This document shows positions 3,801-59,876 of a stretch of DNA of 64,000 nucleotides, one piece after another. The position numbers and the translations under genes are program-made. This DNA comes from a virus. Location: positions 54,012 through 118,011 of IMG/VR virus record IMGVR_UViG_3300047546_001659; one strand, 5' to 3'. The notes beneath the pieces were generated by a model. That model did no database searches, was not told the DNA's origin, and worked only from the letters and a program-made list of their open reading frames with translations. Positions within the stretch are counted from its first letter, which is position 1. The number at the start of each line of letters is the position of its first letter.

Positions 3801-4021
3801 GCGGGATATTGAGTAAAATTGCAACCTTCAACCACAGAACCATCTTTGTAAATACTAGAACCAAATCTTGAGATTTGTTTCTGCATCATTGTTTGAAGCT
3901 GAGTTAATTCTCTCGCTTGCACGGCAGTTGATGGGCGGAACAAAACGCGATAATACATTTTGTCTTCATCATAATCATCATAAAAAGGTGCAACATTAAA
4001 ATTCGTTTGTAACTCAGCCAT
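884..4021 (-). CDS. VrlC/DUF4815-like baseplate/virion structural protein, N-terminal part
   Basis: N-terminus NVAPFYDDYDEDKMYYRVLFRPSTAVQARELTQLQT, plus APGAYRLK and RTKEESGDY motifs. Confidence 0.8.
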   Translation of the reverse strand: MAELQTNFNVAPFYDDYDEDKMYYRVLFRPSTAVQARELTQLQTMMQKQISRFGSSIYKDGSVVEGCNFTQYPALPQVKFKDSNTATLDFKLLTREVTDVANVQSHMSDSYLLVSNNTLLRAAIFEAFSGAEAAVNRGSNDTNRAYVIYINTGRSDASSGGSLTGTGTPVYTFSTAGEKINVYSPLQDKTGALNPNYYVGDIYTLPSNNTVNALGTGFGLHVGQGIIYQKGFFLKSNPKNFMIKEHSTNAVGIKVGFNTKEYIVTPHEDPSLYDNSLGSPNYNAPGAYRLKLVPDLIAYDTTNTDVIIPKDFVPVVDFSGGTGTAVTIQEDPLYSIIGDVMAKRTKEESGDYVVKPFQVNVEPTSNTQTMYYTVSPGVAYVDGYRVEFRSPRRIEVRRGIDSNSSLNERVTVNFGNYMKVADFSGIVDVGGIESVDLYSANQYSLTKNFAGGVNPTGTIVGNATIRAVKYYSGIKGTAQAQYLVYVTNINLVPGNSFQANVKSIGKVSGTFTKIFGDIVPETRTTTGSFNQLYQSDTTQKSLLFYTGLDGTKRLLSSTGANNTSYIYRTTLDAVNATRGSGSFTASFTSGTDEFNYGATAGLDDSLSTDIHVQFAQDTLANCYSTTTISLGSQGGVSNATHSNVTCAAVTAATGSFINNWGSLSYPITTPTTSGIFPKVGDGIKASYKVATVPTVSYHTITAINSANSISITPPLSGVADASSITLQRFFKVGTHVDFNGGGNVISFSTSGSPPKVNQMGITVALDLDTSQTYQIRAQVPLVRNQATPIEKVVTKDAYVAINCASHPASTSGPWSLGIPDVYNIKAIYVGANFANTNPDRKDWFSFDNGQRDNFYGLSYISILPQFKNAISSTSRIFVRLDHFTPNVTSTKATFFSVDSYSIDDANTANTTAVVTAQIPVYKDISGNLYDLRNHIDFRPVMKNTAVSSVSAVFPNYTINPANTSLVYYSSPSVKMAIEPDTNMTYNIEYYLPRVDTLIINKDGLLSVKSSAPSYNSKPPIVNDTGLKIADVYVTPYPSLTFSEAE

Positions 4022-4030
4022 TTCTATTCC

Positions 4031-5527
4031 TTAGAATTTAAAATATATTTTAACATCTTCAGATTTAATACCTGTTCTACTGATAGGTTCAATATTTTTA
4101 TAATATAAAACCTCAGATGAATAAGGAACAAGATCTTTATTATTTATTGTTGAAATAACAACTGTTTTTCCTGACGATAATGAAGTAATTGTTTCATAAG
4201 GATTGAAAGTGCCCACTTCATTAAGGACATATATGCTTGAAGTATTCATGAAAGCAACAGTAGCTTTAGCTTTACTATTAAATCCCTGTATTTCTTCACC
4301 AACAGAAAGAAGAGACGGTGCAGTTAAGACACCAAAATTTAACATTTGATTAAATGTTCTTCCCTGAAAGTTAGCAAGATTAGCAGCGGCTGTTGGATTC
4401 TGAATAAGTGAAACTTGTCTATATTTACCCCAAGGTGGTAAATTATCAAATGAAGAAGTTGAAACTGAAAGACCAACAGTATCACCACCTAGTTCAGAAG
4501 TGGGATTAGATCCGTGTCCTTCCTCGGGAGAAATTATAGCATAAGCTGTTGCATTAGATCCAAAATATGTATTACATTCAATTGAAATATTTGCGTAAGT
4601 ATAATTTCTACCTCTAGCTATTACACGAATAGAAGAAATATTACCATTAGCATTTACTTCTGAAATAGCCTTAGCACCTGAACCATCACCTGTAATATAA
4701 ACTTGTGGACCAATTTTAAATTTAGAAGTGCTGCTTAATCCTGTTATGGATTTATCTGTAAACACATATTTTCCAGAACTATTAACAATATAATCCTTGA
4801 TAAGTGTTAATGCACCTGACCCTGAACCAGCTGAAATATAAAAATAAGAATTAGTATAAGCCCCACTAATTGAGATAACACCTGAATTTGATACTTTAAA
4901 TTTTTTATCACTTATTATACTATCAAATGTACCGTTTCCAGAAATATAGTTGTTACCTGAATTGCTAGGTAGAATGACATGAAGTGCACCGGGCTCTGCC
5001 GTTGCAACAACTGTTGGATTGGGAATTATAGGAAAATATACATCAGTGGAAAATTTCTTTACATTTTTATTATTAATGGCAAACATAAATTTCCATTTGT
5101 ATCCATCGGAGGTATTGAAATCCCCTTTTGACACAGTCAAATTTGGCTCTACAGTTGATGGAGCACCATAATTATTAAACAAACATTTATAAACACGATT
5201 TAAACTATTAATAACATAAAAGTTTTTACTATAAAGATTAGGATCATTATGAGTATAATAATCATAAACGGTTCCTGAAGTCCAATTAATTTTCTTTCCA
5301 ACACACACAATATCATCTGGTGTTACTTTTTTACCAAAAATCATTTCTTTATTAACATCAATAAATGATGTCTGTACAGAAGTGTTTGGTAATGGAGGAA
5401 TTGAATCATCATCCCATTCAAAATATTTGCCAAAAGCAATATAAAAATTAGAAGCAGTATTGCCGACACTTTCTTTAAATGCCTCGACAAATTTATTTTT
5501 AATGTTTTGTGTAAAGGTGCCTGCCAT
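4031..5527 (-). CDS. gp8: baseplate wedge protein gp8-like
   Basis: NWTSGTVYDYY, FYVINSLNRVYKCLFNNYGAPSTVEP, DGYKWKFMF motifs; synteny. Confidence 0.85.
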   Translation of the reverse strand: MAGTFTQNIKNKFVEAFKESVGNTASNFYIAFGKYFEWDDDSIPPLPNTSVQTSFIDVNKEMIFGKKVTPDDIVCVGKKINWTSGTVYDYYTHNDPNLYSKNFYVINSLNRVYKCLFNNYGAPSTVEPNLTVSKGDFNTSDGYKWKFMFAINNKNVKKFSTDVYFPIIPNPTVVATAEPGALHVILPSNSGNNYISGNGTFDSIISDKKFKVSNSGVISISGAYTNSYFYISAGSGSGALTLIKDYIVNSSGKYVFTDKSITGLSSTSKFKIGPQVYITGDGSGAKAISEVNANGNISSIRVIARGRNYTYANISIECNTYFGSNATAYAIISPEEGHGSNPTSELGGDTVGLSVSTSSFDNLPPWGKYRQVSLIQNPTAAANLANFQGRTFNQMLNFGVLTAPSLLSVGEEIQGFNSKAKATVAFMNTSSIYVLNEVGTFNPYETITSLSSGKTVVISTINNKDLVPYSSEVLYYKNIEPISRTGIKSEDVKIYFKF

Positions 5528-9325: not shown

Positions 9326-10799
9326 ATGATGTCTGACATGCGCGTAGATACTGTGGATTGTATTTTTGAATGTCGTTTGCTGTTGATGCAGCTAGTTGCC
9401 AGCCTTGCATTATAGGTTTTGATCCAAGAGGAGAGAAATTTTCGCCCATCATAGTAGCATTCATTCCTAACATAAAGGGGATAGCATTATCAGATCTTCT
9501 CATTTCTATTGTTGAAGTAACAGGAACATTTAAATTACTACAAAGATTAGTAGCCATTTGAGATACTTGTTGACCGTAATAAGTAGAAGATGGAGGCATT
9601 TCTGGTGAACCCGTAATCATTCTTGATACCATGGATGTAATAGGGATTGAACCACCCATCGAAGCAAAGTTTTGCATACCAAAACTTACCACCCCAGTAC
9701 CACCTTGATTTGTACCAAATGCACCAACTCTTCTACAAAATACTTGATCAATGGCAGGCAGAGAAACAGGAGCTTCACCAAAGAAACTTTTACCAGCATA
9801 TGAAGGTGGGGTAAGCATTGGGTTATTTGCTCTGGTTGATGTAGCTATTCTATTGCCCGTAATAACTTCTGACATCATACCGCCAATAGCAAGTCCTCCT
9901 CCCTTACCTAATAATGATGCCATGGCAATACCACCAAGAGAACCAAGTGATGCTAATGATCCACCAAGTGGTGTTTGATTAAGAAGACTTGCAATTGCTG
10001 AGGCTCCGGCAAGTGTTGCCAATCCTTGAGTTGCAACTGCAGGATTAGTTACAGATGCAAGTTGTACTGCACTTAATGTTCCTGCAGCTAATCCTGCATA
10101 AGTGTTAACAGCATTTGTAATAGATGATTGTGAAAGATCGGAAGAAGCTCTTAGATAATTAGTACCAGGATTTTGATTATTATTAAAAGCTGTTCCTATG
10201 ATAGATGAACCAATTACACCCAATGATATACCGAGAGCTGCTGCAGATAAAGTATCACCTGAACTACTTCTTGAAGGATCATCATATTGGCGCATTGATT
10301 CATATTGATTAGAATATCTTTGATCAACAGAATATACAGCTTGACTCAAATAACCAATATTAGAAATAGAATGAATTTGTACTACACCTAAAATATTACG
10401 GATGTATCTTTGATTTGCTAATTCAGGAATGTTTACAGTATTTGCAATATATGTTAGCTGTTCTATATTAGAAACAGAGGCTAATATATAAAAAAATTTT
10501 TCTAAGGCATCATAAGGAATGACACCATAAGATGACAATTCTTTTGATTTGGATTCTATAGCTTCAATTTCTTTTTCAGTAAGTTTATAATTCTTATCAG
10601 TTCTTACATAGTCCGCTGGTGCTGGTCCATATGATTTTAAAATAGAAGCCGGACCTGCCATAGCAGCACCTATAGCAACAGCGTTATTAAATTGTTCATT
10701 AGAAGGTTTTAATTCTTGACTACCATAAAACCCTGGTTGTTGAATTACACCTCTTTGAATTAAAGCAGTAATATCTGGGGAAATATTGTAATTAGGCAA
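9321..10799 (-). CDS. virion/hub-associated protein with Gly/Ala-rich hydrophobic middle; C-terminus possibly a degenerate lysozyme-like domain
   Basis: Long ORF in baseplate operon; RANNP motif and helical C-terminal pattern. Confidence 0.45.
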   Translation of the reverse strand: MPNYNISPDITALIQRGVIQQPGFYGSQELKPSNEQFNNAVAIGAAMAGPASILKSYGPAPADYVRTDKNYKLTEKEIEAIESKSKELSSYGVIPYDALEKFFYILASVSNIEQLTYIANTVNIPELANQRYIRNILGVVQIHSISNIGYLSQAVYSVDQRYSNQYESMRQYDDPSRSSSGDTLSAAALGISLGVIGSSIIGTAFNNNQNPGTNYLRASSDLSQSSITNAVNTYAGLAAGTLSAVQLASVTNPAVATQGLATLAGASAIASLLNQTPLGGSLASLGSLGGIAMASLLGKGGGLAIGGMMSEVITGNRIATSTRANNPMLTPPSYAGKSFFGEAPVSLPAIDQVFCRRVGAFGTNQGGTGVVSFGMQNFASMGGSIPITSMVSRMITGSPEMPPSSTYYGQQVSQMATNLCSNLNVPVTSTIEMRRSDNAIPFMLGMNATMMGENFSPLGSKPIMQGWQLAASTANDIQKYNPQYLRACQTSL

Positions 10800-12573
10800 C
10801 TCTACCCTCCAATGCTGCTACTGCATATGATAATTTAATTCCTGCAATTGCTGATTGACAATGTGGATCAGCACATGTTAATACACTACCTCCACCTTGT
10901 TGACCAGGTTGAGCAGATTCAACATGACAATGAATACCACCTTGATCATTTTTTTCAAGAAGTATTTTACTATAAGGAAGAAAATCTCTCACGTAAGCTG
11001 CCATCTCAGCCGTAAATCCATAATCAGGTTTATTGGAACATCTAATATCTACCGCACCACCTTTGATATGATTAGATGAGTTATCTCTATACCAAGAGGA
11101 GATATACATACGACCCCCAAATTTTTCGTATAAAGGATCTAATATGTTCCAAGCAACATTCATTGCTTCTTTGAGTATTTGTTGATGTTGTGCGGCTGGA
11201 GCACTTCTGATGTTTATAATTTGTCCTACAGTGATATGCTTTGATATCTTCTGTGATGAATTGTATATTGAGGTAGGAATAGGTAAAGGATTTTTCTCTG
11301 CTGTTCCATTATTACTTGATACACCAGCTGGTCTATCATATATGCCTGTTGCAATAGCTTCAGCTGTAATGCCTGAATCTTTAGCCTGATAAGTGACACC
11401 AGATCCTTTGTTGCCTGCAGCATAAGCTTCTGCCTGAGGATTTGGTCTACCGCCTTCATTTTTATAAAGAGAAAATTCTTCAGCTGACATACCCGCAGCA
11501 TTCTTTGGAAAATCAGGAGCCAATCTTACTGAAGTAATTGAATCTATAATAGTGTTAGTTGTAGGATACTGTGCAAGTTGTGCTGCATTTATATTAGCAT
11601 CATCAACAGAAGGTGATCCACCTGTTTGAATATCCGTAGTTGATCCTTTGATATTAACTTTTGCAGATGCTAATAAATCTATAGTTGATGAAGAATGAAT
11701 AGAAGCAGCACTTGTTGATGAAATTTTTGTTGTGCCGTTTGCTCTTACAGATAAGTCAGCTTCTGTAGCAATTCCTATATCATCCTTTGCGTCAATTTCA
11801 ATTTTTTCTTTAGCATAGATACCTACATTTTTCTGTGCGTTCACTTCTACGGTCTTATCAGATCTAACAGTAATTTCTTTTCCTGCATCTACTTCAAGTG
11901 ATTGAGGTGTTTGTATTCTCATTTTACCAGCAGATGTAATTCTATAATCACCTGCAATCATTGTACTAGAATCTTTAGCTACTTCAATTATCTTACTGCC
12001 GTTTTGAATTACTTCTTCAATTGATCCATCGTGAACTGTAGTAACCATATCACCACCAACTGATATGTTCAAACTACCTCCGACATTGATATCTAAATCC
12101 CCAACCGTTTCAATTGTAATTTTACCATCACCTTTCAATATCATATGACCTTTTGCAAACATAGTCATATCACCTTTTGGTGCAACTATGCCAACACCCT
12201 TTGATCCGGAAGATATCATATGAATAGAACCATCAGCGTCAATCATAATAGTTGCACCTGAATGATGTTGCAATGTAATAGTATCAGAACCAAATGTGTT
12301 ATCAATTACAACTTTGTTTCCTGTAGCAGAAACAAATCCTTGAACATCAGTTGAATCACCAATGCCTCCCATAACACCTGCACCAGGTCCTGTATGAGTT
12401 ATGGTATTATCAGAAGCAGAACCGGGTTTATCTTTTACTGATACTTCATAATAAGGTGCTGGATTACCAGATCCAATTATTTGTGGTCCTTCATTTCTCC
12501 CTACGCCATCACTTTCAATATTGGTGACGGCTTTTACTAATTCAGGATCTGATGCAAATTTATCAATTGACAT
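10792..12573 (-). CDS. gp5 C-terminal beta-helix spike fused to peptidase M15-like domain
   Basis: LQHHSGATIMIDADG then beta-helix repeats; C-terminal ISSWYR..NHIKGGAVDI..IHCHV (Zn peptidase M15). Confidence 0.75.
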   Translation of the reverse strand: MSIDKFASDPELVKAVTNIESDGVGRNEGPQIIGSGNPAPYYEVSVKDKPGSASDNTITHTGPGAGVMGGIGDSTDVQGFVSATGNKVVIDNTFGSDTITLQHHSGATIMIDADGSIHMISSGSKGVGIVAPKGDMTMFAKGHMILKGDGKITIETVGDLDINVGGSLNISVGGDMVTTVHDGSIEEVIQNGSKIIEVAKDSSTMIAGDYRITSAGKMRIQTPQSLEVDAGKEITVRSDKTVEVNAQKNVGIYAKEKIEIDAKDDIGIATEADLSVRANGTTKISSTSAASIHSSSTIDLLASAKVNIKGSTTDIQTGGSPSVDDANINAAQLAQYPTTNTIIDSITSVRLAPDFPKNAAGMSAEEFSLYKNEGGRPNPQAEAYAAGNKGSGVTYQAKDSGITAEAIATGIYDRPAGVSSNNGTAEKNPLPIPTSIYNSSQKISKHITVGQIINIRSAPAAQHQQILKEAMNVAWNILDPLYEKFGGRMYISSWYRDNSSNHIKGGAVDIRCSNKPDYGFTAEMAAYVRDFLPYSKILLEKNDQGGIHCHVESAQPGQQGGGSVLTCADPHCQSAIAGIKLSYAVAALEGRVA

Positions 12574-19198: not shown

Positions 19199-19371
19199 CC
19201 GGATATTCTAATATCTCGGTCTATTACAATACGTTGTTTTCTTTAGTACATCACCATAAATATTCATTGACAGAGGTTTATGATATGTATCCTTACGAAA
19301 GAGATCTATTTTTAGAATTGCTAATGATGCATATTAAGGACGTACAAGAAAGAAAGACACGTAATGGCTAA
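19189..19371 (+). CDS. gp51: gp51-like hub assembly/chaperone segment in the -1 frame of gp26 (absent from ORF track)
   Basis: Translates YVLTGYSNISVYYNTLFSLVHHHKYSLTEVYDMYPYERDLFLELLMMHIKDVQERKTRNG*; HKYSL.E...M.P.ER motif; reached by slip at T TTT TTT (19183-19189) or a TTG start at 19195. Confidence 0.8.
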   Translation, partial: YVLTGYSNISVYYNTLFSLVHHHKYSLTEVYDMYPYERDLFLELLMMHIKDVQERKTRNG

Positions 19372-21727
19372 AAAAGAAACAGGCGAAGATATTCTCCGAG
19401 CTATTATGGAAAAAGGTGGTAAGGGTGGTGGTAGAGCTCAGCAAGCAGCTGCAGAGGCTCTTAATGATGCTGCTGAAAGTATTAAAGAAAATACCAGACA
19501 ACAGGCAAAAATTGGTGAAACCTTAGGTAACGTTTTTAATAATTTTAAAAATTCATTTTCCAGTGCTGGTGGTGGAGGCAGAGGTACGGGTGACGGAACA
19601 GGAGGCCTTGGTGGCCTTGGGGGCGGCGGAAGAAGAAATAATGTTCCAAATATATTATTAGATATCCTAAATGTAAATAGAAGTATCTTAAAATTTACTC
19701 ATTCTAATAATGATGTTCTTTATGATATTCTTGACGCTATTCGTGGCAATGAAAGAAGTAAAATTGAAGAACGTAGAGAAAGATCCACAAGAACTCAACC
19801 TACTGAAGGTACAGGTGCAGGAATAGGCAAAACTTTAACTGGTGCTGGTAATCTCTTTGGTGGTATGGGTAATTTATTGAGTGGATTGGGTGGCGGACTA
19901 GGTAAACTACTTGGTGGTGCAGGCATTGCAGCTTTTCTTTTATCAGAAGCTGATGCAGAAAAAATCAAAAAAAATATTGAAACCCTCTTATCAATTGGTG
20001 AGGGATATGAAAGCAAGCTTGATTTCCTAAAAGAAGGTGGAACTCTTGCTTTAATGTTATATGGAATAGGAACCGGTCTTTCTACATTTGCTATTGGACA
20101 ATTTGCAAATGTTATTACTCAATGGACTACTGGATTTTTAGGTAAAGAAAATTGGGCTGAAACAGTAAAAGATAATGTTGCTGATCTTTTAGAAATAGCT
20201 AATTTACCAAATAGTAATGTAGGTAATGTTGCTTGGCTTACAACGGCTTTGGTTGGTATAGGAACAGGGTTAGCTGTTTTTGGAATTGGTAAAGGCGTTG
20301 AGGGTGGGATTGAAGGTATAGTAAAGGGAATAGATTTCTTTACAAAAGATCAACCATTTGCCCAGAGGTTAAAAGATGAACTTGGAACTTTACTTTCAAT
20401 AGCAGATTTACCACACCAAAATGACGCAGGATGGTTAGCAGGTGCTTTGACTAAAATAGGACTTGGTTTAAGTGTGTTTGCATTAGGCAAAGGTTTAGAA
20501 GGTATTGCATATGCAGGTCAAGAAATAGTTGATTTCTTCACAGGACAACAACCCTTTGCACAAAGAATATATGATGAAGTAAAAACTCTATTATCAATTG
20601 CGGATATTCCTCATGCATCAGATGATGTAACATGGTTTGCTAATATGGCAGCAGGCATCACAGCCGGTTTGGGAGTATTTGCATTAGGAAAAGGGTTAGA
20701 AGGTGGCGTTAATGCTATAACTAGAATTGTTGATTTCTTCGCAGGTCAACAACCTTTTGCTGATAGAATTTATAATGAAGTAAAAACTTTATTATCAATT
20801 GCTGATATTCCTCACGCTTCTGAAAATGTAAATTGGTTTGCAGATGCAATGGCTGGTATAACTGCAGGACTTGGAGTGTTTGCATTAGGTAAGGGTTTAG
20901 AAGGCGGGGTCAATGCAGTAACCAAGATTATTGACTTTTTTACTGGAGATAAACCTTTTGCTCAGAGAATATATGATGAGGTTTCAAAATTATTATCAAT
21001 TACTAAAATTGACGCAGATGGCAAATCTTTCTTCTTAACGATGTCTGATATAGCTGCTGGTCTTGCAGCCTTTACTGTATCAGACTTTGCAAGTTCATTA
21101 GTTAATGTCGGAACTAGTATTTTAAATTTTATATCCGGAAAAAGTAGCCCGTTTGATAAGATTAAAGAATTAGCTAATGATGCTGATAAGTTAGAAAAAG
21201 GTGCCAATGCTTTAGAGAAAATTGCAAATGCATTGTCAACATTTTCTAATATTAAAACCGGTAATTTAGGTGATATTGATTTTGAAGGTATGGCAAAAAA
21301 TCTAGGTCAAGCCATACCATTATTAAATGCTCTCGCAAATGGTGGAACTTTATCTGCAGGTGGTTTATTCAGTTGGCTTAAATCAGATTTAGATTTTGGA
21401 AAAGGTATTCTTGATCCAAATCTAAAACTTGATCAGATGGCATCTGCAATTAGTAAGATTAACTACGTATTAGGTAGAACAACTGATATAACACCTGTTC
21501 AAGGCAATGCTCAAAACGTAAATGCAGCAACTAGACAAAACGCTGTTGATGGTGAAAGTCAAGGTAATAACATCATAGTTGTACCACCAGCAAATGGAAC
21601 TTCAAACGCTTCACGTGAACCACCTATGGTTCCTAGAAGTTCAGGGGCAGTTCAGACCGCCCCTGTTCCATCTTTATTTGATCGTCATATGTACGATAGT
21701 GCTTACTTTGGTGCTGGACACCCTTAA
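19364..21727 (+). CDS. tape measure protein (gp29-like)
   Basis: Follows gp26/gp51; helical Ala/Gly-rich with 66-67 aa tandem repeats. Confidence 0.7.
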   Translation: MAKKETGEDILRAIMEKGGKGGGRAQQAAAEALNDAAESIKENTRQQAKIGETLGNVFNNFKNSFSSAGGGGRGTGDGTGGLGGLGGGGRRNNVPNILLDILNVNRSILKFTHSNNDVLYDILDAIRGNERSKIEERRERSTRTQPTEGTGAGIGKTLTGAGNLFGGMGNLLSGLGGGLGKLLGGAGIAAFLLSEADAEKIKKNIETLLSIGEGYESKLDFLKEGGTLALMLYGIGTGLSTFAIGQFANVITQWTTGFLGKENWAETVKDNVADLLEIANLPNSNVGNVAWLTTALVGIGTGLAVFGIGKGVEGGIEGIVKGIDFFTKDQPFAQRLKDELGTLLSIADLPHQNDAGWLAGALTKIGLGLSVFALGKGLEGIAYAGQEIVDFFTGQQPFAQRIYDEVKTLLSIADIPHASDDVTWFANMAAGITAGLGVFALGKGLEGGVNAITRIVDFFAGQQPFADRIYNEVKTLLSIADIPHASENVNWFADAMAGITAGLGVFALGKGLEGGVNAVTKIIDFFTGDKPFAQRIYDEVSKLLSITKIDADGKSFFLTMSDIAAGLAAFTVSDFASSLVNVGTSILNFISGKSSPFDKIKELANDADKLEKGANALEKIANALSTFSNIKTGNLGDIDFEGMAKNLGQAIPLLNALANGGTLSAGGLFSWLKSDLDFGKGILDPNLKLDQMASAISKINYVLGRTTDITPVQGNAQNVNAATRQNAVDGESQGNNIIVVPPANGTSNASREPPMVPRSSGAVQTAPVPSLFDRHMYDSAYFGAGHP
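20333..21005 (+). repeat. degenerate 198-201 bp coding tandem repeats within the tape measure gene
   Basis: DFF-x-G-xx-PFAQRI units begin at 20333, 20531, 20732 and 20933. Confidence 0.85.
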
Positions 21728-22650
21728 TCAGAAGCTAACTTCTTAAAGAAGCTAAGATCCTCATCGTCTTCATCCCAAGGTGCTGAAGACTCTTGCTTAG
21801 CTGCTGGGATAGAAGGTGCAGGAGCTGCACGTTGAGGTGTTGGGAAAGCTTCATCTTCATCATCAAGAGAAGGAGCCATACGCTGAGGTGAATCAGTGAG
21901 TGTTCCGAGAGCCTTCTCAAGACGCATCTTCAATTCTTCATATGACTTGAAGTGCTTTGCATCAAGAAGTTCTTGAAGTGAATGTTGCTTACCCCAGATA
22001 GCTTTAATCTGCTCATCATCATTTGCAATAGAAGATGGTGAATCAAATTCAGACTTATCATAGTTACGATAGCCTTCTACCTGACGAATCTTCAACTTAA
22101 AGTTTGCTCCATCCCAGAAATCAAAAGGATTAACAGCCTTCTCATCTTGGAATTGTGGATGCATAGCTTCGTTGATCTTATCAAAGATCTTTTTACCATA
22201 CTTAAACAAGAATACCTTGCCTTCGTTTTCTGGACGAGTAGGATCCTTAATAACAAGAATGTTAGAGAAGTATGAAAGGCGACGCTTTTGCTTGCGTACA
22301 ATTTCCTTATTTGATTCAATACCAGAGTTCCAGAGTTTTGTGTTCATCTCTGATACTGGATCTGGTTTATTGAATGTGGTTAGGCTTTTTTCGATATACC
22401 AACCACCAGGACCTTGGAACCCATGGTCCCAAATGCGTACGAACGGCATGTCTTCACCAGCTGGGGCGGGAAGAAAACGAATGATCGCATAGCCATTGCC
22501 GGCTTTGTCGACATCTGGTTTCCAGAAGCGATCGTCGTTGTTTGAACCGTCTTGTTGGGAAACTGTAGAATTGAGCTTGTTGAGCTCGGATGTGAGTTTG
22601 TCAAAGTTAGACTTACGATTTTGTTTAAGTGCTTCGAAATTAATAGTCAT
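21724..22650 (-). CDS. gp32: single-stranded DNA-binding protein gp32
   Basis: DDRFWKP..DKAGNGYAIIRFLP..HGFQGPGGWYIE..NYDKSEF; acidic tail. Confidence 0.95.
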   Translation of the reverse strand: MTINFEALKQNRKSNFDKLTSELNKLNSTVSQQDGSNNDDRFWKPDVDKAGNGYAIIRFLPAPAGEDMPFVRIWDHGFQGPGGWYIEKSLTTFNKPDPVSEMNTKLWNSGIESNKEIVRKQKRRLSYFSNILVIKDPTRPENEGKVFLFKYGKKIFDKINEAMHPQFQDEKAVNPFDFWDGANFKLKIRQVEGYRNYDKSEFDSPSSIANDDEQIKAIWGKQHSLQELLDAKHFKSYEELKMRLEKALGTLTDSPQRMAPSLDDEDEAFPTPQRAAPAPSIPAAKQESSAPWDEDDEDLSFFKKLASD

Positions 22651-22704
22651 AGTATTCTCCGTTGTGTTACGATATATTAATTGTATGATACGTTGTATAT
22701 GAAA

Positions 22705-23280
22705 TCACGAGAATTTATTTCTCAAGATCCCACAATATTTATCTTTATTATACTCCATAAAAGGGTATAATTTTTTACAGTTCATGGCAATTTGAGGCCA
22801 TAGAACTGGGTCATTTATCTGCTTGTTCCAACTACCAAAGAATCGTACACAGTCTTGAATAATAATAAAGGATTCTTTGGTAATCTTTTTACGAACAAGC
22901 AAATTCAGTAGATAAGGATACCCACCATCGTCAGGTACCTTAAAATTCTCATCAAAATTTTCTAATAGATGATCTATATCTGATTCAAACATATATTGAA
23001 GTGTTTGCTTACGCCTCAAATAATCATTATATTTAAATTGATGATCTGTATTAAACATATCACCTATCCAAAGTTTTTGATTCTCTGAAAGATTAGCAAC
23101 CAGAAATGTCTTAGGATCTTCGTGTTTAGACAACTTATAAAACATATATTTGTCTTTGCGTGTTTCAAAAGAGTGTTCTGAAACGTTTGTTTTACCATTA
23201 TACTTTACAAAATCATATGATGGTGAAGTAAAATGATTTTTCAAAGCTACAAATAATTTATAGGCTTCAAAAGGTGTCAT
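22705..23280 (-). CDS. gp59: helicase loader gp59
   Basis: AYKLFVALKNHFT..YDFVKYNGK..RKDKYMFYKL; adjacent to gp32. Confidence 0.85.
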   Translation of the reverse strand: MTPFEAYKLFVALKNHFTSPSYDFVKYNGKTNVSEHSFETRKDKYMFYKLSKHEDPKTFLVANLSENQKLWIGDMFNTDHQFKYNDYLRRKQTLQYMFESDIDHLLENFDENFKVPDDGGYPYLLNLLVRKKITKESFIIIQDCVRFFGSWNKQINDPVLWPQIAMNCKKLYPFMEYNKDKYCGILRNKFS

Positions 23281-23510
23281 ATAGGTAATCTACCCGATCT
23301 TCTTACAAGGTTAAGATTTTCAGCTTCTATTTGAATTTTTGCTTTTAATACTGTACTCTGTTTAATTAGTGAAGCAGCAGTTTCAACTTCAATGTTATTT
23401 GACTCACAGTAATGCATTACAGCGTCAAAATATGTCAAACCTTTAACTGAAGCTAACCTGTCAATTTCTTTTACAAAGTCAGCAGAGGATTTTATATTAC
23501 TTATTTTCAT
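23277..23510 (-). CDS. gp33: late transcription coactivator gp33
   Basis: YFDAVMHYCESNNIEVETAASLI..LKAKIQIEAENLNL. Confidence 0.85.
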   Translation of the reverse strand: MKISNIKSSADFVKEIDRLASVKGLTYFDAVMHYCESNNIEVETAASLIKQSTVLKAKIQIEAENLNLVRRSGRLPI

Positions 23511-24666
23511 CTATATTTCTTTTAAATGCAAGTGTTATGTTTGTGCCACCAAAACCAAATGAATTATTGAGAACTATATTTTGTTCAGTTTCATATGGAA
23601 CATTTGGTAGGAAAATTTCTTCTGATATGCTTTCGTCTTTTTCATCTAAATTCCAATTTGGAATTATTACACTATTTTCAAGAACAGTAATACAGGCTAA
23701 TGATTCAATAGCACCGGCTGCACCAAATAAATGTCCGTGCAATCCTTTAGTAGAGCTGATGGGAATATTCGATGTATATTTACCAAAAATATTTTCTATG
23801 CTTTTTAACTCTACAAGATCACCAATTGGTGTACCAGTTCCATGAGCATTAATATAAGTTACATCTTGAATATCAAAATCCTTTAAAGCAAGAGACATAC
23901 ATTTAACCTGGCCTTCAGTGTTTGGTTTAGTTACAGATTCAGAACCATTTGATACACCATATCCAACTATTTCACAATATATTTTTGCATTTCTTGCAAT
24001 AGCTTTATCGTAATTTTCTAGAATGAATATTACTGAACCTTCTGACATTGTAATACCATTTCTATTTTTAGAAAAGGGTTTACAATCACTACTTAGCGCA
24101 TTCATAGCTTTCCAATAGGCAAATTGCAATTCATTAATACAAGCCTCAGAACCACCAGCTGCTAGACAATCATATTCACCATAAGCAATCTTCTTATAAG
24201 CTTCACCTATAGCTGTAGAGGAAGATGAACAAGCTGTCGAATAAGTAAAAGCGGGACCTTTTAAACCATCTTTAAGAGCTATAAAGTTAGCACCCATATT
24301 AACAACAGAACAAATTAATGCAGAGGGTTTAACTTTTCCTTTTGCAAATAAAGATTTATATGACTCTTCATAAGCTATAGCACCACCACCATATCCAACA
24401 CCTAATAATATTCCCTCTGGATAATTGGAACTATCATTAATAGCATCTTTATAAGATAACCAAGCAAGCCTTGTAAACCTATCTGTAATGTTTAGATCAA
24501 ACCTATCAAAATGACTATCAACATCCTCAGAAACAACATAAGAAGATGAATCAAACATATCTTGTTTAGATCCAAATACACCTCTTATAAATGAATTTTT
24601 TACTGTGGGGTAATCATTGCCAATTGGCGTTCTGCAACCTATACCTGTAATTGCAACTCTGTTCAT
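23497..24666 (-). CDS. beta-ketoacyl-ACP synthase (FabF/NodE-like)
   Basis: RVAITGIG, TACSSS (catalytic Cys), NAHGTGT (His), GHLFGAAG (His), NSFGFGGTN. Confidence 0.9.
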   Translation of the reverse strand: MNRVAITGIGCRTPIGNDYPTVKNSFIRGVFGSKQDMFDSSSYVVSEDVDSHFDRFDLNITDRFTRLAWLSYKDAINDSSNYPEGILLGVGYGGGAIAYEESYKSLFAKGKVKPSALICSVVNMGANFIALKDGLKGPAFTYSTACSSSSTAIGEAYKKIAYGEYDCLAAGGSEACINELQFAYWKAMNALSSDCKPFSKNRNGITMSEGSVIFILENYDKAIARNAKIYCEIVGYGVSNGSESVTKPNTEGQVKCMSLALKDFDIQDVTYINAHGTGTPIGDLVELKSIENIFGKYTSNIPISSTKGLHGHLFGAAGAIESLACITVLENSVIIPNWNLDEKDESISEEIFLPNVPYETEQNIVLNNSFGFGGTNITLAFKRNIDENK

Positions 24667-24923
24667 TTATGATCCATATTATCATAAATGTAATCAACTA
24701 ATCCATTCAATGTTGTTGCAATGTCTTCTATTGTAATTGAATTTATTTCAAAAACATCTTCAAGTTCAAAAAGAATATTAATGACTTCCATAGAATCTAA
24801 TTTTTCATTTAATTCTTGAAGTCTGTTGAGAGGGAAATCACTATCTAAAACATTTATGTTAATATTATAATTTTTATTAAAGTAGGTAGCAATGGTTTCA
24901 CGGATTTCATCTTTTGTCATCAT
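24663..24923 (-). CDS. acyl carrier protein
   Basis: LDSMEVINILFELEDVFEI phosphopantetheine-site motif; acidic; GAGG RBS before ATG ATG at 24923/24920. Confidence 0.8.
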   Translation of the reverse strand: MMTKDEIRETIATYFNKNYNININVLDSDFPLNRLQELNEKLDSMEVINILFELEDVFEINSITIEDIATTLNGLVDYIYDNMDHK

Positions 24924-24937
24924 AACCTCATAATAAA

Positions 24938-25225
24938 TGGTGGAGAGATTCTGTTTCCAAGCTCTCTCCGGGCTCATATCAAGCAGCGAGTGCTAGATTA
25001 GGTGCAAAGTTATCGTTTGCATTTAGTTTTGTCGCTTCAGTCTCGATCTTGTCTTTACTACACCTGTCGATCCTATTTCGCCCCCATCAAAGATACAGCA
25101 AAGAAGATTTATTTACTGCTGACTCTAATCTTCTATCCAGCATCACTTCTGTATCTATGGTGGAGGCGGAGGGTATCGCACCCTCGTCCAGTATGTCTAT
25201 TCTACTAGATGTCAACAACATCAGC
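24938..25225 (-). ncRNA. ssrA: circularly permuted two-piece tmRNA (alphaproteobacterial type), tag (A)ANDNFAPNLALAA
   Basis: T-arm GAGGG-TGCGATA-CCCTC plus CGCCTCC-A-CCA (ends 25158) precedes 5' acceptor strand GGGGGCG (starts 25085) with G3:U70; tag ORF at 25020-24979; 5' boundary approximate. Confidence 0.92.
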
Positions 25226-25230
25226 AATTA

Positions 25231-25261
25231 TATTTATAGCATATAATTAATTAAATGTCAA
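25231..25261 (-). promoter_or_regulatory. composite sigma70 / T4-late promoter for tmRNA
   Basis: TTGACA-17 bp-TATAAATA. Confidence 0.75.
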
Positions 25262-25269
25262 CTGTAATT

Positions 25270-25971
25270 TTATACACCATTTCTGGTTCTATATACTTCA
25301 CGCCAATGCATCAAATCTTTAACATAATAATCTCGACGATCCTCAAATACCTGAGGAGGTTCATTGTCAACCGAAATAAGAATAACAATTCTACTTACGG
25401 GAATATTGAATCTTTCTTCGTACATAATAGCATAGGCAGAAGCTTGACAGAAGTAATTTAAAATATGATCTCTGTTTTTTAATTTACGAGCTGTTTTAAA
25501 ATCTATAATTGAAAGTTTACCTTTCCATTCAGCAACACAATCAACAGTGCCAGCCATCTTTAAATAATCAGAATAAAGTCTTACTTCTTGTAAATGTATG
25601 TTATCAATATTTCTATCCAACTCAGGTTTAAGTTCATTGAAATTAATGACATCATTAAAATTATATTTGCTTACATCTATCTCATTATTGTTTAGATAGT
25701 CTTCACACAACTGATGTATACGTGTTCCACGAGTAGCAGCTTGTGTGCTTATTTTATTGGCTTCTTCATTACCAACTCTTTTACGCCAAGCTCGAATCGC
25801 ATCTTCACTCATTAATCCAGTTACAGTAGTCACAGAGGGATATAATTCACCGGAAGGAGTTTTATAATACCTTCCGGTGTCTGTATTGACTTGTTCTAAT
25901 ACATCCTCATTAAGGGTCTTTTTGAGATGAGTGAAGTGCTTGCGTTGGGCTAAAATGTCCTTGAGTAGCAT
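25270..25971 (-). CDS. PD-(D/E)XK exonuclease (Cas4-like phage exonuclease)
   Basis: YPSVTTV..WRKRVG..RGTRIH..AGTVDC..IIDFKT..Q..AYA. Confidence 0.85.
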   Translation of the reverse strand: MLLKDILAQRKHFTHLKKTLNEDVLEQVNTDTGRYYKTPSGELYPSVTTVTGLMSEDAIRAWRKRVGNEEANKISTQAATRGTRIHQLCEDYLNNNEIDVSKYNFNDVINFNELKPELDRNIDNIHLQEVRLYSDYLKMAGTVDCVAEWKGKLSIIDFKTARKLKNRDHILNYFCQASAYAIMYEERFNIPVSRIVILISVDNEPPQVFEDRRDYYVKDLMHWREVYRTRNGV

Positions 25972-26710
25972 TATGTAATATTCCGTTCTCTATCATATTT
26001 CTTTTAATTATAAAGTCTTTTACGAGACCGGATCTCACAATATCATTCTCGCTAAACTCAATACATGAAAAATATTTTGACATTCTATCAAGTATTTTCA
26101 TAAATCTATGAATGCCTTCTTTTTCATCATCCCATTTTAAATCAGTTTGTCTATAATCTCCACAGAAAATAATCTTAGAGTTATGTCCGACTCGGGTGAT
26201 GATTGTATTAAGTTCTTGATATGTCATATTTTGACATTCATCAACTATTATAATTGTATTGTCTAATGTAAGTCCTCTTAAGAAAGAAGATGTTTCAAAT
26301 TGTATTAGATTTTTTTGTTTAAGTATTTCGTAAGCATCGCCTCTATTATAAAGCTGAGAGCATATTGCTTGATAGGGGGCTTCATATACTTTAGATTTTT
26401 CTTTTATGGAACCGGGTAAGAAACCCATATCTCGAGAGGGGACTACTGAGCGTATTATTGTAACACTATTATATTCTCTATACTCTTCTATTTCTGATAA
26501 GGCAAGATAAAGTGATATAAATGATTTGCCTGTACCAGGAAGACCGTGAATTAAAAGATTTTTACCATTAATAAATTCTTTAAATACTTTTTCTTGATTT
26601 AATGTTTTAGGTGTTACAGTCTTTAGTTCGAGGTTATTTTTTGTTTGTTTTTGCTCCTGACGCTTTTGTTGTTTCAGTAGTCTCTTTTCTGCGCGAGATA
26701 GTCTTTCCAT
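25910..26710 (-). CDS. phoH: PhoH-like ATPase
   Basis: GLPGTGKS, MGFLPG, LRGLT, DECQN, TRVG, GDYRQTD, DIVRSGLV. Confidence 0.93.
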   Translation of the reverse strand: MERLSRAEKRLLKQQKRQEQKQTKNNLELKTVTPKTLNQEKVFKEFINGKNLLIHGLPGTGKSFISLYLALSEIEEYREYNSVTIIRSVVPSRDMGFLPGSIKEKSKVYEAPYQAICSQLYNRGDAYEILKQKNLIQFETSSFLRGLTLDNTIIIVDECQNMTYQELNTIITRVGHNSKIIFCGDYRQTDLKWDDEKEGIHRFMKILDRMSKYFSCIEFSENDIVRSGLVKDFIIKRNMIENGILHNATQGHFSPTQALHSSQKDP

Positions 26711-28828: not shown

Positions 28829-29185
28829 TTAAGTGTTCAACTGTTTTTCTTCAATAATCCCTTGTAAATCTTGATGAGCTTGTGGTGTCAATGAAATTAT
28901 TTTTTGTGCCAGATCTTGGAAGTCATGATTTAAATTTTTTGTTGAATAAATCATAGCCTTCAATGCTTCTTCTACAAATACAATATACTTGACATTATCT
29001 TCGTCAGGTTTTACTGTAATTCCATATGAAGATAATACTGAGAAAGCTGCTTCCATAACATCTGAACAAACTTCGTCACAATAATCGCGTCTTACGTTTT
29101 CAATATGCTCATAAGATTGTTCAAGAGAAACTGGGAAATTTTTATCATCAATTTTTTTGGGAAACTCTAATATGTTATCCATCAC
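28829..29185 (-). CDS. hypothetical protein
   Basis: ORF with NILEFP N-terminus. Confidence 0.55.
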   Translation of the reverse strand: MMDNILEFPKKIDDKNFPVSLEQSYEHIENVRRDYCDEVCSDVMEAAFSVLSSYGITVKPDEDNVKYIVFVEEALKAMIYSTKNLNHDFQDLAQKIISLTPQAHQDLQGIIEEKQLNT

Positions 29186-29199
29186 TCTGCCGTGTTAGA

Positions 29200-29237
29200 G
29201 GGGCATACACATTTATTTATGGTTTTGTGTATGCCCC
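29200..29237. promoter_or_regulatory. 12-bp hairpin with late-promoter-like CATAAATA (minus strand) in its loop
   Basis: GGGGCATACACA (29200-29211) / TGTGTATGCCCC (29226-29237). Confidence 0.6.
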
Positions 29238-29243
29238 ATAATA

Positions 29244-30359
29244 TCATTTAATGACCCTAAGCAGAATCATGTTTGTATTAATACGGTCTGAAAAGTTGGT
29301 GGGTTCAGATTTAATTTCTTCCATTAGTTTACGAAGAACAATCTTACCACCGTTAAGAACTTTCTTAACATACTCTTCAGGTTTACGTCCAATGCGTTTT
29401 GTCAAGGAAGCATCGCTATCATAGCCATCAATGCTAGCGCGCCGTATATTGAGACCAGAAGGCCCACGAGCCCTGAAAACACTAAGAGTTTTAGACTTAG
29501 TGTTAAAACACCAGAGTTCTTGAGAGCCAATAATCGTTGCGGGGTCACACGATTGTAGTTTATACTCATTGCTTTCTTTCTGATACTGGAAATGTTTCAA
29601 GAGTTTTTCGGTAGTAGGAGCTTTCTTCTTACGAGGAGCACGAGCCTTCTTCACATTACCTGCAAAGCGTTCGCAGTCTTCGATAAGCTTAGCGACATAT
29701 GCTAACTTAGCTTTTAGTTGAGGTTTCGAATAGTGAGTGTAGCCCTCATTACTCTCGGTATAAGCATAAGCATACTCATCACGAAGAGGCTTATAGTAAT
29801 CAGCGATTTTATTGGAATGCTGTGCTGGAATCTCATTTTTCTGTAACCACTCATAAATGTTGACTTGTTCACCGGAATCGAGAATAGCTTCTATATCCCC
29901 AATAATATCAGAGACACGTTCCCTGATACGTTCTTGAATATTAGGCTTGACTTTAGGTTCAGAAGGTTTCTCTTCTACCTCTTCACCAAAGCCAGAAGCA
30001 TCCTTAATATCATCATTAACACGAACCAAATCATTTGCTTGTAATTCTTCTTTGCGATTAGTAGCAATACGACAAAGCCAAGCAGATGTCAAAGGAACAC
30101 GCTTATCAGGAATACGATCAATAATCTTGATCATGTTCTTGTCATTTTTAAAATAGTCTTTTAGATATTGTCTAGCCTCATTGTTATCACACATGTAATT
30201 ATACCATGTGAAAGCACGAACCAGATCAATATTAGTCTCTATCTTGTCAGCCTTAGGTTCGTCACCCAAATACTTCCAATTGACTAAATATGTTTCACTC
30301 TTTGTTGAACGTTTGGTCTTAGGTTTCTTTGACTTTACACTAAGTAGTGATTTAGCCAT
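29244..30359 (-). CDS. conserved T4-like hypothetical protein
   Basis: YLGDEP, WYNY, PNIQERI, IIGSQELWCFNTK, RKPEE, RIN motifs. Confidence 0.65.
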   Translation of the reverse strand: MAKSLLSVKSKKPKTKRSTKSETYLVNWKYLGDEPKADKIETNIDLVRAFTWYNYMCDNNEARQYLKDYFKNDKNMIKIIDRIPDKRVPLTSAWLCRIATNRKEELQANDLVRVNDDIKDASGFGEEVEEKPSEPKVKPNIQERIRERVSDIIGDIEAILDSGEQVNIYEWLQKNEIPAQHSNKIADYYKPLRDEYAYAYTESNEGYTHYSKPQLKAKLAYVAKLIEDCERFAGNVKKARAPRKKKAPTTEKLLKHFQYQKESNEYKLQSCDPATIIGSQELWCFNTKSKTLSVFRARGPSGLNIRRASIDGYDSDASLTKRIGRKPEEYVKKVLNGGKIVLRKLMEEIKSEPTNFSDRINTNMILLRVIK

Positions 30360-57795: not shown

Positions 57796-57872
57796 TGGTA
57801 CCCTCGACCGGATTCGAACCGGTAACACAGAGATTTTAAGTCTCTTGACTCTACCTGTTGGTCTACGAGGGC
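57796..57872 (-). tRNA. tRNA-Leu(UAA) with short variable loop
   Basis: GCCCTCG/CGAGGGT-A-CCA; anticodon arm AGAGA-CTTAAAA-TCTCT; T-arm ACCGG-TTCGAAT-CCGGT. Confidence 0.85.
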
Positions 57873-57875
57873 AAT

Positions 57876-57952
57876 TGGCGATCTCAGGAGGATTCGAACC
57901 TCCGACCTGCGGATTAGAAATCCGTTGCTCTGTCCAGCTGAGCTATGAGACC
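57876..57952 (-). tRNA. tRNA-Arg(UCU)
   Basis: GGTCTCA/TGAGATC-G-CCA; anticodon loop TTTCTAA; canonical D- and T-arms. Confidence 0.9.
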
Positions 57953-57954
57953 AT

Positions 57955-58248
57955 TCAATAAAGATTAATGTTTAATTTTTCACGAAAATACTTTTTAAGT
58001 TCTTTTTCAAAAAACTCTGGTGATGTAGTCATATAAGATGTGTAGAGTTTTGTGATATCGTCGTCTTTGTGATGAAGTTTACCATAAACAGTATATCCAC
58101 GTTCTTGAACAGCGTGAACAAGGTCACGATCATCATCCCCTGGTTCATATACAGTGAACCCTCGGCTTCTTACTTCTTCAACAAGATCATAGTCATCAAT
58201 ATCATCTAAGTCAAAATCAACATCAACTGTCTGAGTAATAGTTGGCAT
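57955..58248 (-). CDS. hypothetical protein with internal repeat
   Basis: DDYDLVEEVRSRGFTVY / DDRDLVHAVQERGYTVY. Confidence 0.6.
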   Translation of the reverse strand: MPTITQTVDVDFDLDDIDDYDLVEEVRSRGFTVYEPGDDDRDLVHAVQERGYTVYGKLHHKDDDITKLYTSYMTTSPEFFEKELKKYFREKLNINLY

Positions 58249-58249
58249 G

Positions 58250-58495
58250 TCACTTGTACCTTTTGTTTATCTCATCAATCCTAATATTAAGATACTCTAT
58301 AATGAAATCTTTTGCAACAGAATTTTCAAAGTATATCTTAGCATAGTTTAGTTCATCAACAAAGGCTGCTTTTTTCATCTGATCTACTGAATAATTATAA
58401 GGCAGATCAGTCCCAGAGTGCTTCAAAGTACTTGCCGAAAAGCCTGAAACCGTTTCGTTTGCGCTCATTCCATTTCTCCCAGCCTTCTTGATCAA
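58250..58495 (-). CDS. hypothetical protein (start uncertain)
   Basis: Fills gap in the gene chain. Confidence 0.35.
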   Translation of the reverse strand: MIKKAGRNGMSANETVSGFSASTLKHSGTDLPYNYSVDQMKKAAFVDELNYAKIYFENSVAKDFIIEYLNIRIDEINKRYK

Positions 58496-59782: not shown

Positions 59783-59801
59783 AGGTCACCTTATTATAAA
59801 A

Positions 59802-59876
59802 TGGTTGCGGGGGATGGATTCGCACCACCGACCTTCGGATTATGAGTCCGACGCTCTTCTTCTGCGCTACCCCGCG
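59802..59876 (-). tRNA. tRNA-Met(CAU), initiator-like
   Basis: CGCGGGG/CCCCGCA-A-CCA with C1:A72 mismatch; anticodon loop CTCATAA. Confidence 0.8.

Follow-up and report, generated by a model that had tools for sequence, protein, structure and literature searches.

A carrier protein and ketosynthase pair directly behind the tmRNA of an uncultured freshwater phage as a probable phage-specific acyl-chain module

We analysed a window of 64,000 nucleotides (nt), the last 64 kb of the 118-kb virus record IMGVR_UViG_3300047546_001659 of IMG/VR (estimated completeness of the record, 69%), in which a gene for an acyl carrier protein (ACP) and a gene for a FabF-like beta-ketoacyl-ACP synthase (KAS) lie directly behind the gene for a transfer-messenger RNA (tmRNA). 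We propose, with a probability of about 0.6, that these two proteins form an active, phage-specific acyl-chain module that leans on the fatty-acid enzymes of the host, its activity being predicted from the sequence. Carrier and condensing enzyme are conserved under constraint and tightly coupled behind a promoter-like site at the tmRNA. Both genes are intact and belong to recognised families, the catalytic residues are conserved, the pair recurs on viral contigs, and the cassette fills a flexible gap between two conserved genes. The elements in question are the following.

24663..24920 (alternative start 24923), minus strand: ACP, 85 amino acids, with the serine of a DSM motif as residue 43 (from a family profile and a model)
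23497..24666, minus strand: FabF-like KAS, 389 amino acids (PF00109 and PF02801)
24939..25259, minus strand: two-piece (circularly permuted) alphaproteobacterial-type tmRNA with tag ANDNFAPNLALAA (Rfam, ARAGORN)
25231..25261, minus strand: composite promoter-like site, TTGACA-N17-TATAAATA (consensus match only)

The KAS matches both Pfam domains of its family (PF00109, E 1e-34, 120.7 bits; PF02801, E 1.9e-32, 112.2 bits; cut-off 20.8), and by its domains and catalytic residues it is of the elongating KAS I/II type, with condensing activity predicted. Its Cys, His, His, Lys and Phe residues align with C164, H304, K336, H341 and F401 of E. coli FabF (precursor numbering), the gating Phe lying in SFGFGGTN. 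These residues are kept in 87 of 87 members of the clade described below; of the two malonyl-binding Thr, one is kept in 86 and the other in all 87. An earlier note on this DNA had described an intact Cys-His-His ketosynthase that is translationally coupled to the ACP and overlaps the gene for the late-transcription coactivator gp33, and the open reading frame (ORF) coordinates bear this out, since the ACP stop and the KAS start overlap by 4 nt in a common ATGA and the 3' end of KAS overlaps the 5' end of gp33 by 14 nt. With FabF (3o04_A, 5sxo_A, 1j3n_A; E. coli 1kas/2gfw) the enzyme shares the two-domain thiolase fold, the triad, the Lys, the gating Phe and both Thr, and FabF gives its best hidden Markov model (HMM) and structure matches. 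The closest solved structure is the FabF 3o04_A (245.8 bits), the mitochondrial KAS chains 9n50_A and 2iwy_A (about 219 bits) are also among the good matches, and FabB reaches about 175 bits. It differs from FabF in that identity is only 35-41% (35% to E. coli FabF, 41% to Thermoanaerobacterium FabF), in that it scores 320.7 bits with the FabF equivalog model TIGR03150 of NCBIfam against a cut-off of 493.75 (all 22 of its NCBIfam matches fall below their own cut-offs), in being about 24 residues shorter, with deletions near FabF 60-68, 96-104 and 212-220, in carrying GSESVT for the FabF motif DAYHMT, in having its own carrier protein and in falling into a separate clade. Identity to a betaproteobacterial-type group is 36-40%. 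The I108F substitution in FabF shortens the acyl pocket, and Ile108 is a position that we take to be a determinant of chain length; the residue aligned to it is Tyr in the subclade of the window, Phe in two other subclades and Ala in the largest, in an alignment that is ambiguous at this point, as MAFFT --auto shifts the residue by one.

The small ORF in front of KAS (24663-24977, minus strand) is an acyl carrier protein, as judged from its family profile, an invariant serine, its modelled fold and its acidity. The likely start is the ATG at 24923 or 24920, preceded by GAGG, and the ACPs of relatives begin at the corresponding MT(K/R)(D/E). A profile of ten phage family members finds as its best solved structure 2n50_A (E 1.9e-9), and all 60 solved-structure matches shown are carrier proteins. 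One member (L018:5980-6258) passes PF00550 with 26.4 bits against a cut-off of 20.8, and the window protein scores 21.4 bits (E 2.2e-4) with the NCBIfam ACP model, whose cut-off is 66. The serine is invariant in 10 of 10 phage homologues, in a common K-x-D-S motif. In an AlphaFold model (pLDDT 85) the protein is a helical bundle (helices 3-18, 31-36, 43-56, 64-67 and 71-82) whose helix 43-56, or helix II, begins with Ser43 of the DSM motif; in a Foldseek search with this model, 50 of the 50 matches listed are ACP-type carriers or complexes containing one (TM 0.56-0.76, E>=0.025). The isoelectric point is 4.07. These data uphold the ACP with a DSM motif that had been read from the letters alone.

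A search of 5.8 billion proteins with the KAS returned three tiers of matches: 22 clusters at 71-91% identity, 49 full-length clusters at 45-54% identity, all of 371-399 amino acids, and ordinary FabF-like proteins of 408-413 amino acids at no more than 41% identity. None of the contigs that carry the 71 full-length clade clusters exceeds 147 kb, apart from a 364-kb contig with a member of one of them, and the next tier of matches after the clade includes chromosomes of 2-2.9 Mb. The source databases give the clusters generic enzyme names, and one source labels P0064 'nodulation protein E'. Scanning IMG/VR with the tier-2 alignment yielded clade members at 23 loci, of which 18 lie on contigs new to the analysis, and a far more distant KAS at a further 5 loci; clade-bearing viral contigs are up to 364 kb long. 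Among the matches listed from a pattern-seeded scan with this alignment over one genome per species for 185,579 prokaryote species (565 confirmed matches), the best has 38% identity to a clade member. In 401 alphaproteobacterial genomes, a set that includes the unpublished G043 and G243 (neither of which carries a claim by itself), the best match reaches 256.6 bits at 40% identity and the highest listed identity is 42%, and in 72,556 plasmid records the best KAS match is at 36.4%.

In a tree of 77 rows (IQ-TREE quick, LG+C20, with SH-aLRT, the Shimodaira-Hasegawa-like approximate likelihood ratio test), the 39 phage rows form one clade with SH-aLRT support of 100 on a stem of length 1.03. Its sister (support 94) consists of proteins of 410-423 amino acids that include a KAS from a Caballeronia plasmid with an ACP of its own, and the group of E. 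coli FabF lies further out. By this tree the KAS belongs to a strongly supported clade, found only on viral contigs in these searches. Nesting within ordinary FabF, which the earlier note had named as the outcome that would speak against a distinctive enzyme, is not what the tree and the TIGR03150 score give. Among isolates the picture is sparse: a tblastn search of 50,697 phage records gave 28 matches, all below 60% identity and the best whole-length one at 36.4%, none of the 28 listed being a pelagiphage record or having a name that marks it as T4-like, and PHROGs holds no family for either the ACP or the KAS. The statement that KAS/ACP pairs are rare in phages therefore holds for isolates and fails for metagenomic viral contigs, on which the cassette is recurrent. 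Two further searches say little: giant multi-domain polyketide synthases so dominated a profile search of 1.84 billion representatives that only 2 of the 150 matches listed are single-domain proteins (P0155 and P0068), and this result has no bearing on the size of the clade, and P0110 of the sister group found nothing in 121 Pseudomonadota genomes at E<=1e-130, a threshold that is too strict.

The order tmRNA-ACP-KAS is the same in all five viral contigs whose KAS is 71-76% identical to that of the window. For a wider view, the ORFs around KAS were clustered and scanned with Pfam; the set comprises 23 distinct viral contigs, several of which end a short way from KAS. A membrane desaturase (PF00487), in one to three copies, adjoins KAS on 18 of the 23, an ACP lies beside it on 13, and one or other of two kinds of phosphopantetheinyl transferase (PPTase) is present on 8, an AcpS-like one standing just upstream in the group of L012, L014 and L022. 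In most T4-like members gp33-gp59-gp32 lie downstream of the cassette block. Unrelated genes surround the same ACP-desaturase-KAS trio in L024, where a UvsW-like helicase is among them, and in the L018 group, whose contigs are 138-364 kb long. On the 286-kb contig of L018 itself, genes near the trio (1529-4401 and 10495-11043) encode a Bax1-I family membrane protein, an NAD synthase, a SleB-like hydrolase and an Fe/Mn superoxide dismutase. L021 and L023 deviate, and in L023 the ORF clustering found neither an ACP nor a desaturase beside KAS. Among the closest relatives an AcpS is encoded at L006:601-993 (PF01648, 45.6 bits) and also in L002 and L004; that of L006 is located between homologues of the window ORFs 29244-30359 and 28829-29185, where the window has a slot of 58 nt. 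Because the record holds neither an AcpS homologue nor a desaturase, the window holds the minimal, ACP-plus-KAS form of a wider viral lipid cassette. The two-gene form is also seen in a 110-kb relative, G404, which has no desaturase.

Several relatives carry further genes at the cassette. The fullest one (L008:4438-10474) runs from an ACP through three tandem desaturase paralogues, the first of which has no Pfam match, to KAS, followed by a metal-dependent hydrolase (PF10118), an M15 peptidase, a 210-amino-acid protein, a SleB-like cell-wall hydrolase and gp33. In L006, the closest large relative, a 2OG-Fe(II) oxygenase (PF13759; 7406-8119) is located between gp33 and gp59, where the window has no gene; a weak homologue (23% identity) is encoded elsewhere in the record, at C1:92463-92888. 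The protein that follows KAS in L012, L014 and L025 (phrog_11543) has a 54% homologue at window 58410-58937 (C1:112421-112948), far from the cassette. At L030 (6680-9860), and likewise in L033 and L034, a KAS that diverges strongly from the clade (27-28% identity, branch length 4.5) is followed by three tandem genes of about 220 amino acids, of which the one scanned (L030:7898-8572) matches an Asp/Asn beta-hydroxylase (PF05118, E 9.5e-14).

On the minus strand of the window, the genes and sites come in the order PhoH, exonuclease, promoter-like site, tmRNA, ACP, KAS, gp33, gp59 and gp32. The neighbours of the cassette, together with the empty slot, are as follows.

26770-25910, minus strand: PhoH, upstream of the exonuclease
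25971-25270, minus strand: PD-(D/E)XK exonuclease, upstream of the promoter-like site
23277..23510, minus strand: gp33 late-transcription coactivator (PF16805, E 6.4e-18)
22705..23280, minus strand: gp59 helicase loader (PF08993, E 1.8e-13)
21724..22650, minus strand: gp32 single-stranded DNA-binding protein (PF08804, E 3.4e-46)
29186..29243, minus strand: empty slot of 58 nt, at which the closest relatives have an AcpS-type PPTase (130-132 amino acids)

The tmRNA is recognised by the Rfam families alpha_tmRNA RF01849 (124 bits, gathering score 50) and RF04321 (111.8 bits), and ARAGORN gives it as permuted, with the in-frame tag ANDNFAPNLALAA ending in AA and the pieces in permuted order. At E<=0.1 Rfam finds no glutamine riboswitch and no family beyond tmRNA in 24000-26000. 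The terminal CCACCA ends at 24938 and the ACP starts 14-17 nt further on, in keeping with the roughly 15 nt previously noted; a tmRNA precedes the ACP in 5 of 5 close relatives. The promoter-like site, which combines a sigma-70-like -35 element with a T4-late-type TATAAATA, occurs once in the window (25261-25231) against 0.02 expected, so that the single composite early/late promoter proposed upstream of the genes stands as a consensus match 5' of the tmRNA. In the five relatives TATAAATA is invariant and TTGAC is kept in three. From the tmRNA to gp32 the minus strand has no terminator-like site, and the GC content of this stretch (0.335-0.338) equals that of the rest of the window. In the 50,697 phage records the sole DNA match is a stretch of 55 nt in the exonuclease gene of Pelagibacter phage HTVC008M, because of which we read the backbone as a distant pelagimyophage-like one of T4 type, probably that of an uncultured freshwater phage. 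The locus recurs in freshwater, reservoir and estuary metagenomes: with the possible source excluded, at least part of the stretch is present in 18 runs of 12 studies, and at least half of its sampled words in 7 of those runs, from 6 studies. Elsewhere in the window, a Gly-rich protein of 787 amino acids (19364-21727, plus strand), convergent to gp32, has four or five internal repeats of about 60 residues each (...FAQRIYDEVKTLLSIADIPHAS...), and ARAGORN places three phage tRNA genes, Leu-TAA, Arg-TCT and Met-CAT, at 57796-59876.

The interval between tmRNA and gp33 looks like a general gene-insertion slot in pelagimyophage-like relatives. Among 80 loci found with a gp32 alignment (gp32 identity 53-71%), gp33 is present in 68, with more than 1.5 kb upstream of it in 50 of these, and a permuted tmRNA in 21, always upstream of gp33 on the same strand and separated from it by -17 to 5047 nt; a KAS, ACP, desaturase or L014-type PPTase is found in none of the 80. 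The comparison of presence and absence between ssrA and gp33 that had been suggested earlier hence shows a variable slot, which is the part borne out of the idea that the cassette was captured at an ssrA hotspot; a tyrosine integrase (PF00589) has no match in the record, and nothing shows integrase-type capture. The tag peptides of the 21 tmRNA loci (L141-L220; for example L207, L162, L214, L190 and L211) vary widely, with ANDN..., ANNN... and AANDN... among them. A joint that lacks the cassette (23510 to 24940, skipping 1429 nt and with the same 25 letters) was seen on one contig each in runs X4 and X6, with flanks of only 30 and 25 nt and the likeness set to 90, so that related phages may be the source of these contigs; 23510 and 24940 are also the exact points at which other contigs diverge. 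This is a hint, and no proof, of relatives that join the tmRNA directly to gp33.

From these observations we infer activity, the use of host enzymes, co-transcription and a product along the following lines. In this phage the host AcpS would phosphopantetheinylate Ser43 of the ACP, a step for which the closest relatives bring their own AcpS. The KAS would act as an elongating KAS II-type condensing enzyme, taking an acyl chain onto its Cys and condensing it with a malonyl-carrier whose malonyl unit would be loaded by host FabD, and each cycle would be completed by host FabG, FabZ and FabI. Since no other fab gene comes with the pair, these four host enzymes, and here the PPTase as well, would have to be borrowed, which agrees with the minimal module proposed in the earlier note. 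The pair may be read from the tmRNA promoter within a tmRNA-ACP-KAS-gp33 transcript and would therefore be made from early in infection. The likely purpose would be to re-tune the length and unsaturation of acyl chains in the host envelope during infection, or to make one special acyl chain; in relatives with desaturases the unsaturation would change too, the chains going into host envelope lipids or a dedicated product.

Several results weigh against this proposal. Taken alone, the ACP of the window has no Pfam PP-binding match at E<=0.01, and the KAS has the shortened loops and the GSESVT motif described above. A search for a PPTase, which had been recommended, found no PF01648, TIGR00516 or phage-type AcpS in the 118 kb of the 69% complete record, and tblastn with the L006 AcpS against the whole record gave no match below E 0.75. 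If no host AcpS accepts the carrier, it may therefore remain in the apo form. The record, in the window or the rest of its 118 kb, likewise has no membrane desaturase (PF00487). Among 39 neighbour ORFs of viral loci scanned with Pfam (L004, L006, L008, L014, L018, L022, L024 and L030) there is, beside the cassette, no acyltransferase to indicate what the chain is transferred to. The virus-only status of the clade is based on pattern-seeded scans and automated viral calls. As to transcription, the riverine RNA library X18 contains two contigs of 151 nt (24518-24668 and 24687-24837) over the ACP and the start of KAS, which is a weak hint, DNA carry-over being possible; X18 holds 0.10 of the words, and the uncovered parts are uninformative either way.

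A plainer explanation would be that the pair boosts bulk fatty-acid synthesis, replacing host FabF and AcpP as they decay after shut-off, with no special product. The best HMM and solved-structure matches are indeed ordinary FabF, the ACP is acidic like AcpP, no tailoring gene stands beside the pair in this genome, and surveys, in the parts searched, list viral fabF, fabG and fabZ as auxiliary genes. We nevertheless consider it unlikely, as a long stem leads to the clade and its score is far below the FabF equivalog cut-off, a private and divergent carrier is typical of side pathways and not of bulk synthesis, and the pair is locked to desaturases in most relatives. The private carrier, the long stem and the Ile108-aligned residue, which varies by subclade, argue for a side pathway over a plain boost, without being decisive. 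That residue also bears on the idea that the pair supplies a cofactor or a signal, and not membrane lipid, with chains of short or medium length, such as an octanoyl-carrier for lipoate, as with mitochondrial ACP/KAS. An aromatic residue at this position (Tyr here, Phe in two subclades) and the mitochondrial chains among the good solved matches speak for it; given the ambiguous alignment, the Ala in the largest subclade, the desaturase partners, which point to long chains, and the absence of any lipoyl or biotin gene from the same 39 neighbour ORFs, we regard it as very improbable. Still less credible is an artefact or a passenger, be it a chimera, bacterial contamination or a decaying pair without function. 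The record is a metagenome assembly, and the AcpS and desaturase of the relatives were lost from this genome or never present in it. An assembly chimera was considered and rejected, as every junction is bridged by contigs of other studies: contigs of X4 bridge the gp33/KAS and KAS/ACP/tmRNA joins, and those of X3, from a different study, cover 22600-24101 and 24113-25195 with 0 differences. The recurrence across runs and studies, the gene order common to all five relatives, a GC content like that of the flanks, the open frames and the intact catalytic residues speak in the same direction, as do the variants listed from other samples' contigs, which are mostly synonymous (8 synonymous and 5 conservative replacements among 13 in KAS; 12 of 12 synonymous in gp59).

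The remaining alternative is that the pair descends from, or works like, the rhizobial NodF/NodE, making a special polyunsaturated chain. As references we used NodE of S. meliloti (pSymA), R. leguminosarum and S. terangae, with the nod-gene context confirmed for all three. NodFE and the phage pair have in common a dedicated ACP followed by a dedicated KAS, translational coupling (as in nodFE on pSymA) and no other fab gene, which implies dependence on housekeeping enzymes; the same arrangement, a dedicated ACP before KAS without other fab genes, is found on the Caballeronia plasmid and is hence non-specific. The segments that the earlier note had likened to NodE do resemble it: the loop is shortened in S. 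meliloti NodE (WEAMRALAPD-TCRPFS) as it is in the KAS (ALxxD-C(K/R)PFS in both), and NodE also has PNVP and GGTNAVLAFK (GGTN..LAF in common), and yet this shortened loop is not present in three phage subclades (L008, L014 and L022). P0064, labelled as a nodulation protein, belongs to the clade. A specific affinity to NodE was not borne out, because identity to the three NodE proteins (33-34%) is no higher than that to FabF (35-41%), NodF (14-20 bits) scores like AcpP (17 bits) with the phage ACP profile, for which the Caballeronia ACP is best (27.4 bits), and in the maximum-likelihood tree NodE (SH-aLRT 100) groups with alphaproteobacterial KAS (97), away from the phage clade and its own sister group (94). 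In the approximately unbiased (AU) test, forcing the phage clade together with NodE costs 19.85 log-likelihood units (p-AU 0.099) and is not rejected, so the phylogenetic check separates the two in the best tree and leaves a joint clade standing as a disfavoured arrangement. There are no nod genes at the locus, whose neighbours are tmRNA, gp33, gp59 and gp32 and whose replicon is a phage, and NodE works via a skipped reduction, while the double bonds in the relatives would come from membrane desaturases. On these sequence comparisons the NodF/NodE reading is not supported, and we judge it improbable.

The phage-specific module that we favour can be set beside four known systems. In freshwater pelagimyophages of group PMP-D, Zaragoza-Solas et al. 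(2020, PMC7029224) name a 2OGFeDO protein together with fabF and a stearoyl-CoA desaturase. The fabF of these phages is probably of the same gene family, in the same kind of phage and a freshwater or estuarine habitat, and close relatives of the window phage carry fabF, desaturase and 2OG-Fe(II) oxygenase. The desaturase is absent from the window genome, and the passage of that paper gives gene names only; its text, supplementary tables outside the search, mentions neither tmRNA nor gp33 and has 'acyl' once, in stearoyl-CoA. The OM43 phage Melnitz and pelagimyophages have an ssrA-coactivator operon (Buchholz et al. 2022, PMC9004378), with a two-piece alpha-type tmRNA directly upstream of a gp33-type coactivator and behind an early promoter, as here; the window differs in having a 1429-bp ACP-KAS block in the gap and no glutamine riboswitch. 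Virus-encoded fatty-acid desaturases (vFAD; Zhong et al. 2020, PMC7300359) are likewise phage genes for lipid tailoring, and the partner genes of our relatives are in this family (PF00487). That paper, in the text searched, deals with desaturases alone, with no mention of ketoacyl, acyl carrier or FabF, and the window has no desaturase. Pairs of ACP and KAS also occur inside specialised bacterial clusters: on plasmid pSBC2-3 of Caballeronia sp. SBC2, of the sister group (94) with the tier-3 proteins P0073-P0120, an ACP precedes KAS with the same 4-nt overlap, and this ACP is the best-scoring one with the phage profile; identity is 35-40%, the enzyme has 410-413 amino acids, and it lies beside genes for a KAS III-like protein, a methyltransferase and a FAD-oxidoreductase. 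Our literature searches brought up no publication that describes an ACP and a KAS together in a phage, with the supplementary tables of PMC7029224 and PMC9004378 lying outside their scope; a search of Chen et al. 2019 (PMC6811365) for six terms likewise gave no match.

A bolder extension, which we hold only tentatively, is that large aquatic phages own a private, mobile ACP/KAS/desaturase/PPTase pathway that evolved apart from cellular fatty-acid synthesis and yields a dedicated product instead of bulk membrane lipid. This product might be a chain of set length and unsaturation on a host envelope lipid, a phage protein or a signal, its length being set by the subclade-specific Tyr, Phe or Ala that aligns with FabF Ile108. 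The module would hop between unrelated backbones into flexible slots such as the tmRNA-gp33 gap, and the two genes of the window would be the least that can still function together with the enzymes of the host.

Cyanophage desaturases are familiar as auxiliary genes for lipid tailoring, and phage lipid genes are known mostly as such lone desaturases or as survey entries such as 'fabF'. In the present case the condensing enzyme is accompanied by a carrier of its own and falls into a deep clade found only on viral contigs in these searches. Its tight association, in relatives, with desaturases and with an enzyme that activates the carrier suggests an acyl-chain pathway owned by phages, which would sit in viruses of very abundant freshwater and marine bacteria. 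As only two small genes are concerned, they offer a simple test system that can be expressed and assayed in E. coli, and their placement directly behind the tmRNA would provide a natural example of mRNA release by the processing of a tmRNA precursor. With an active module, the acyl chains of host envelope lipids would come to differ in length or saturation during infection, which could affect membrane function during long latent periods, the timing of lysis or the entry of other phages.

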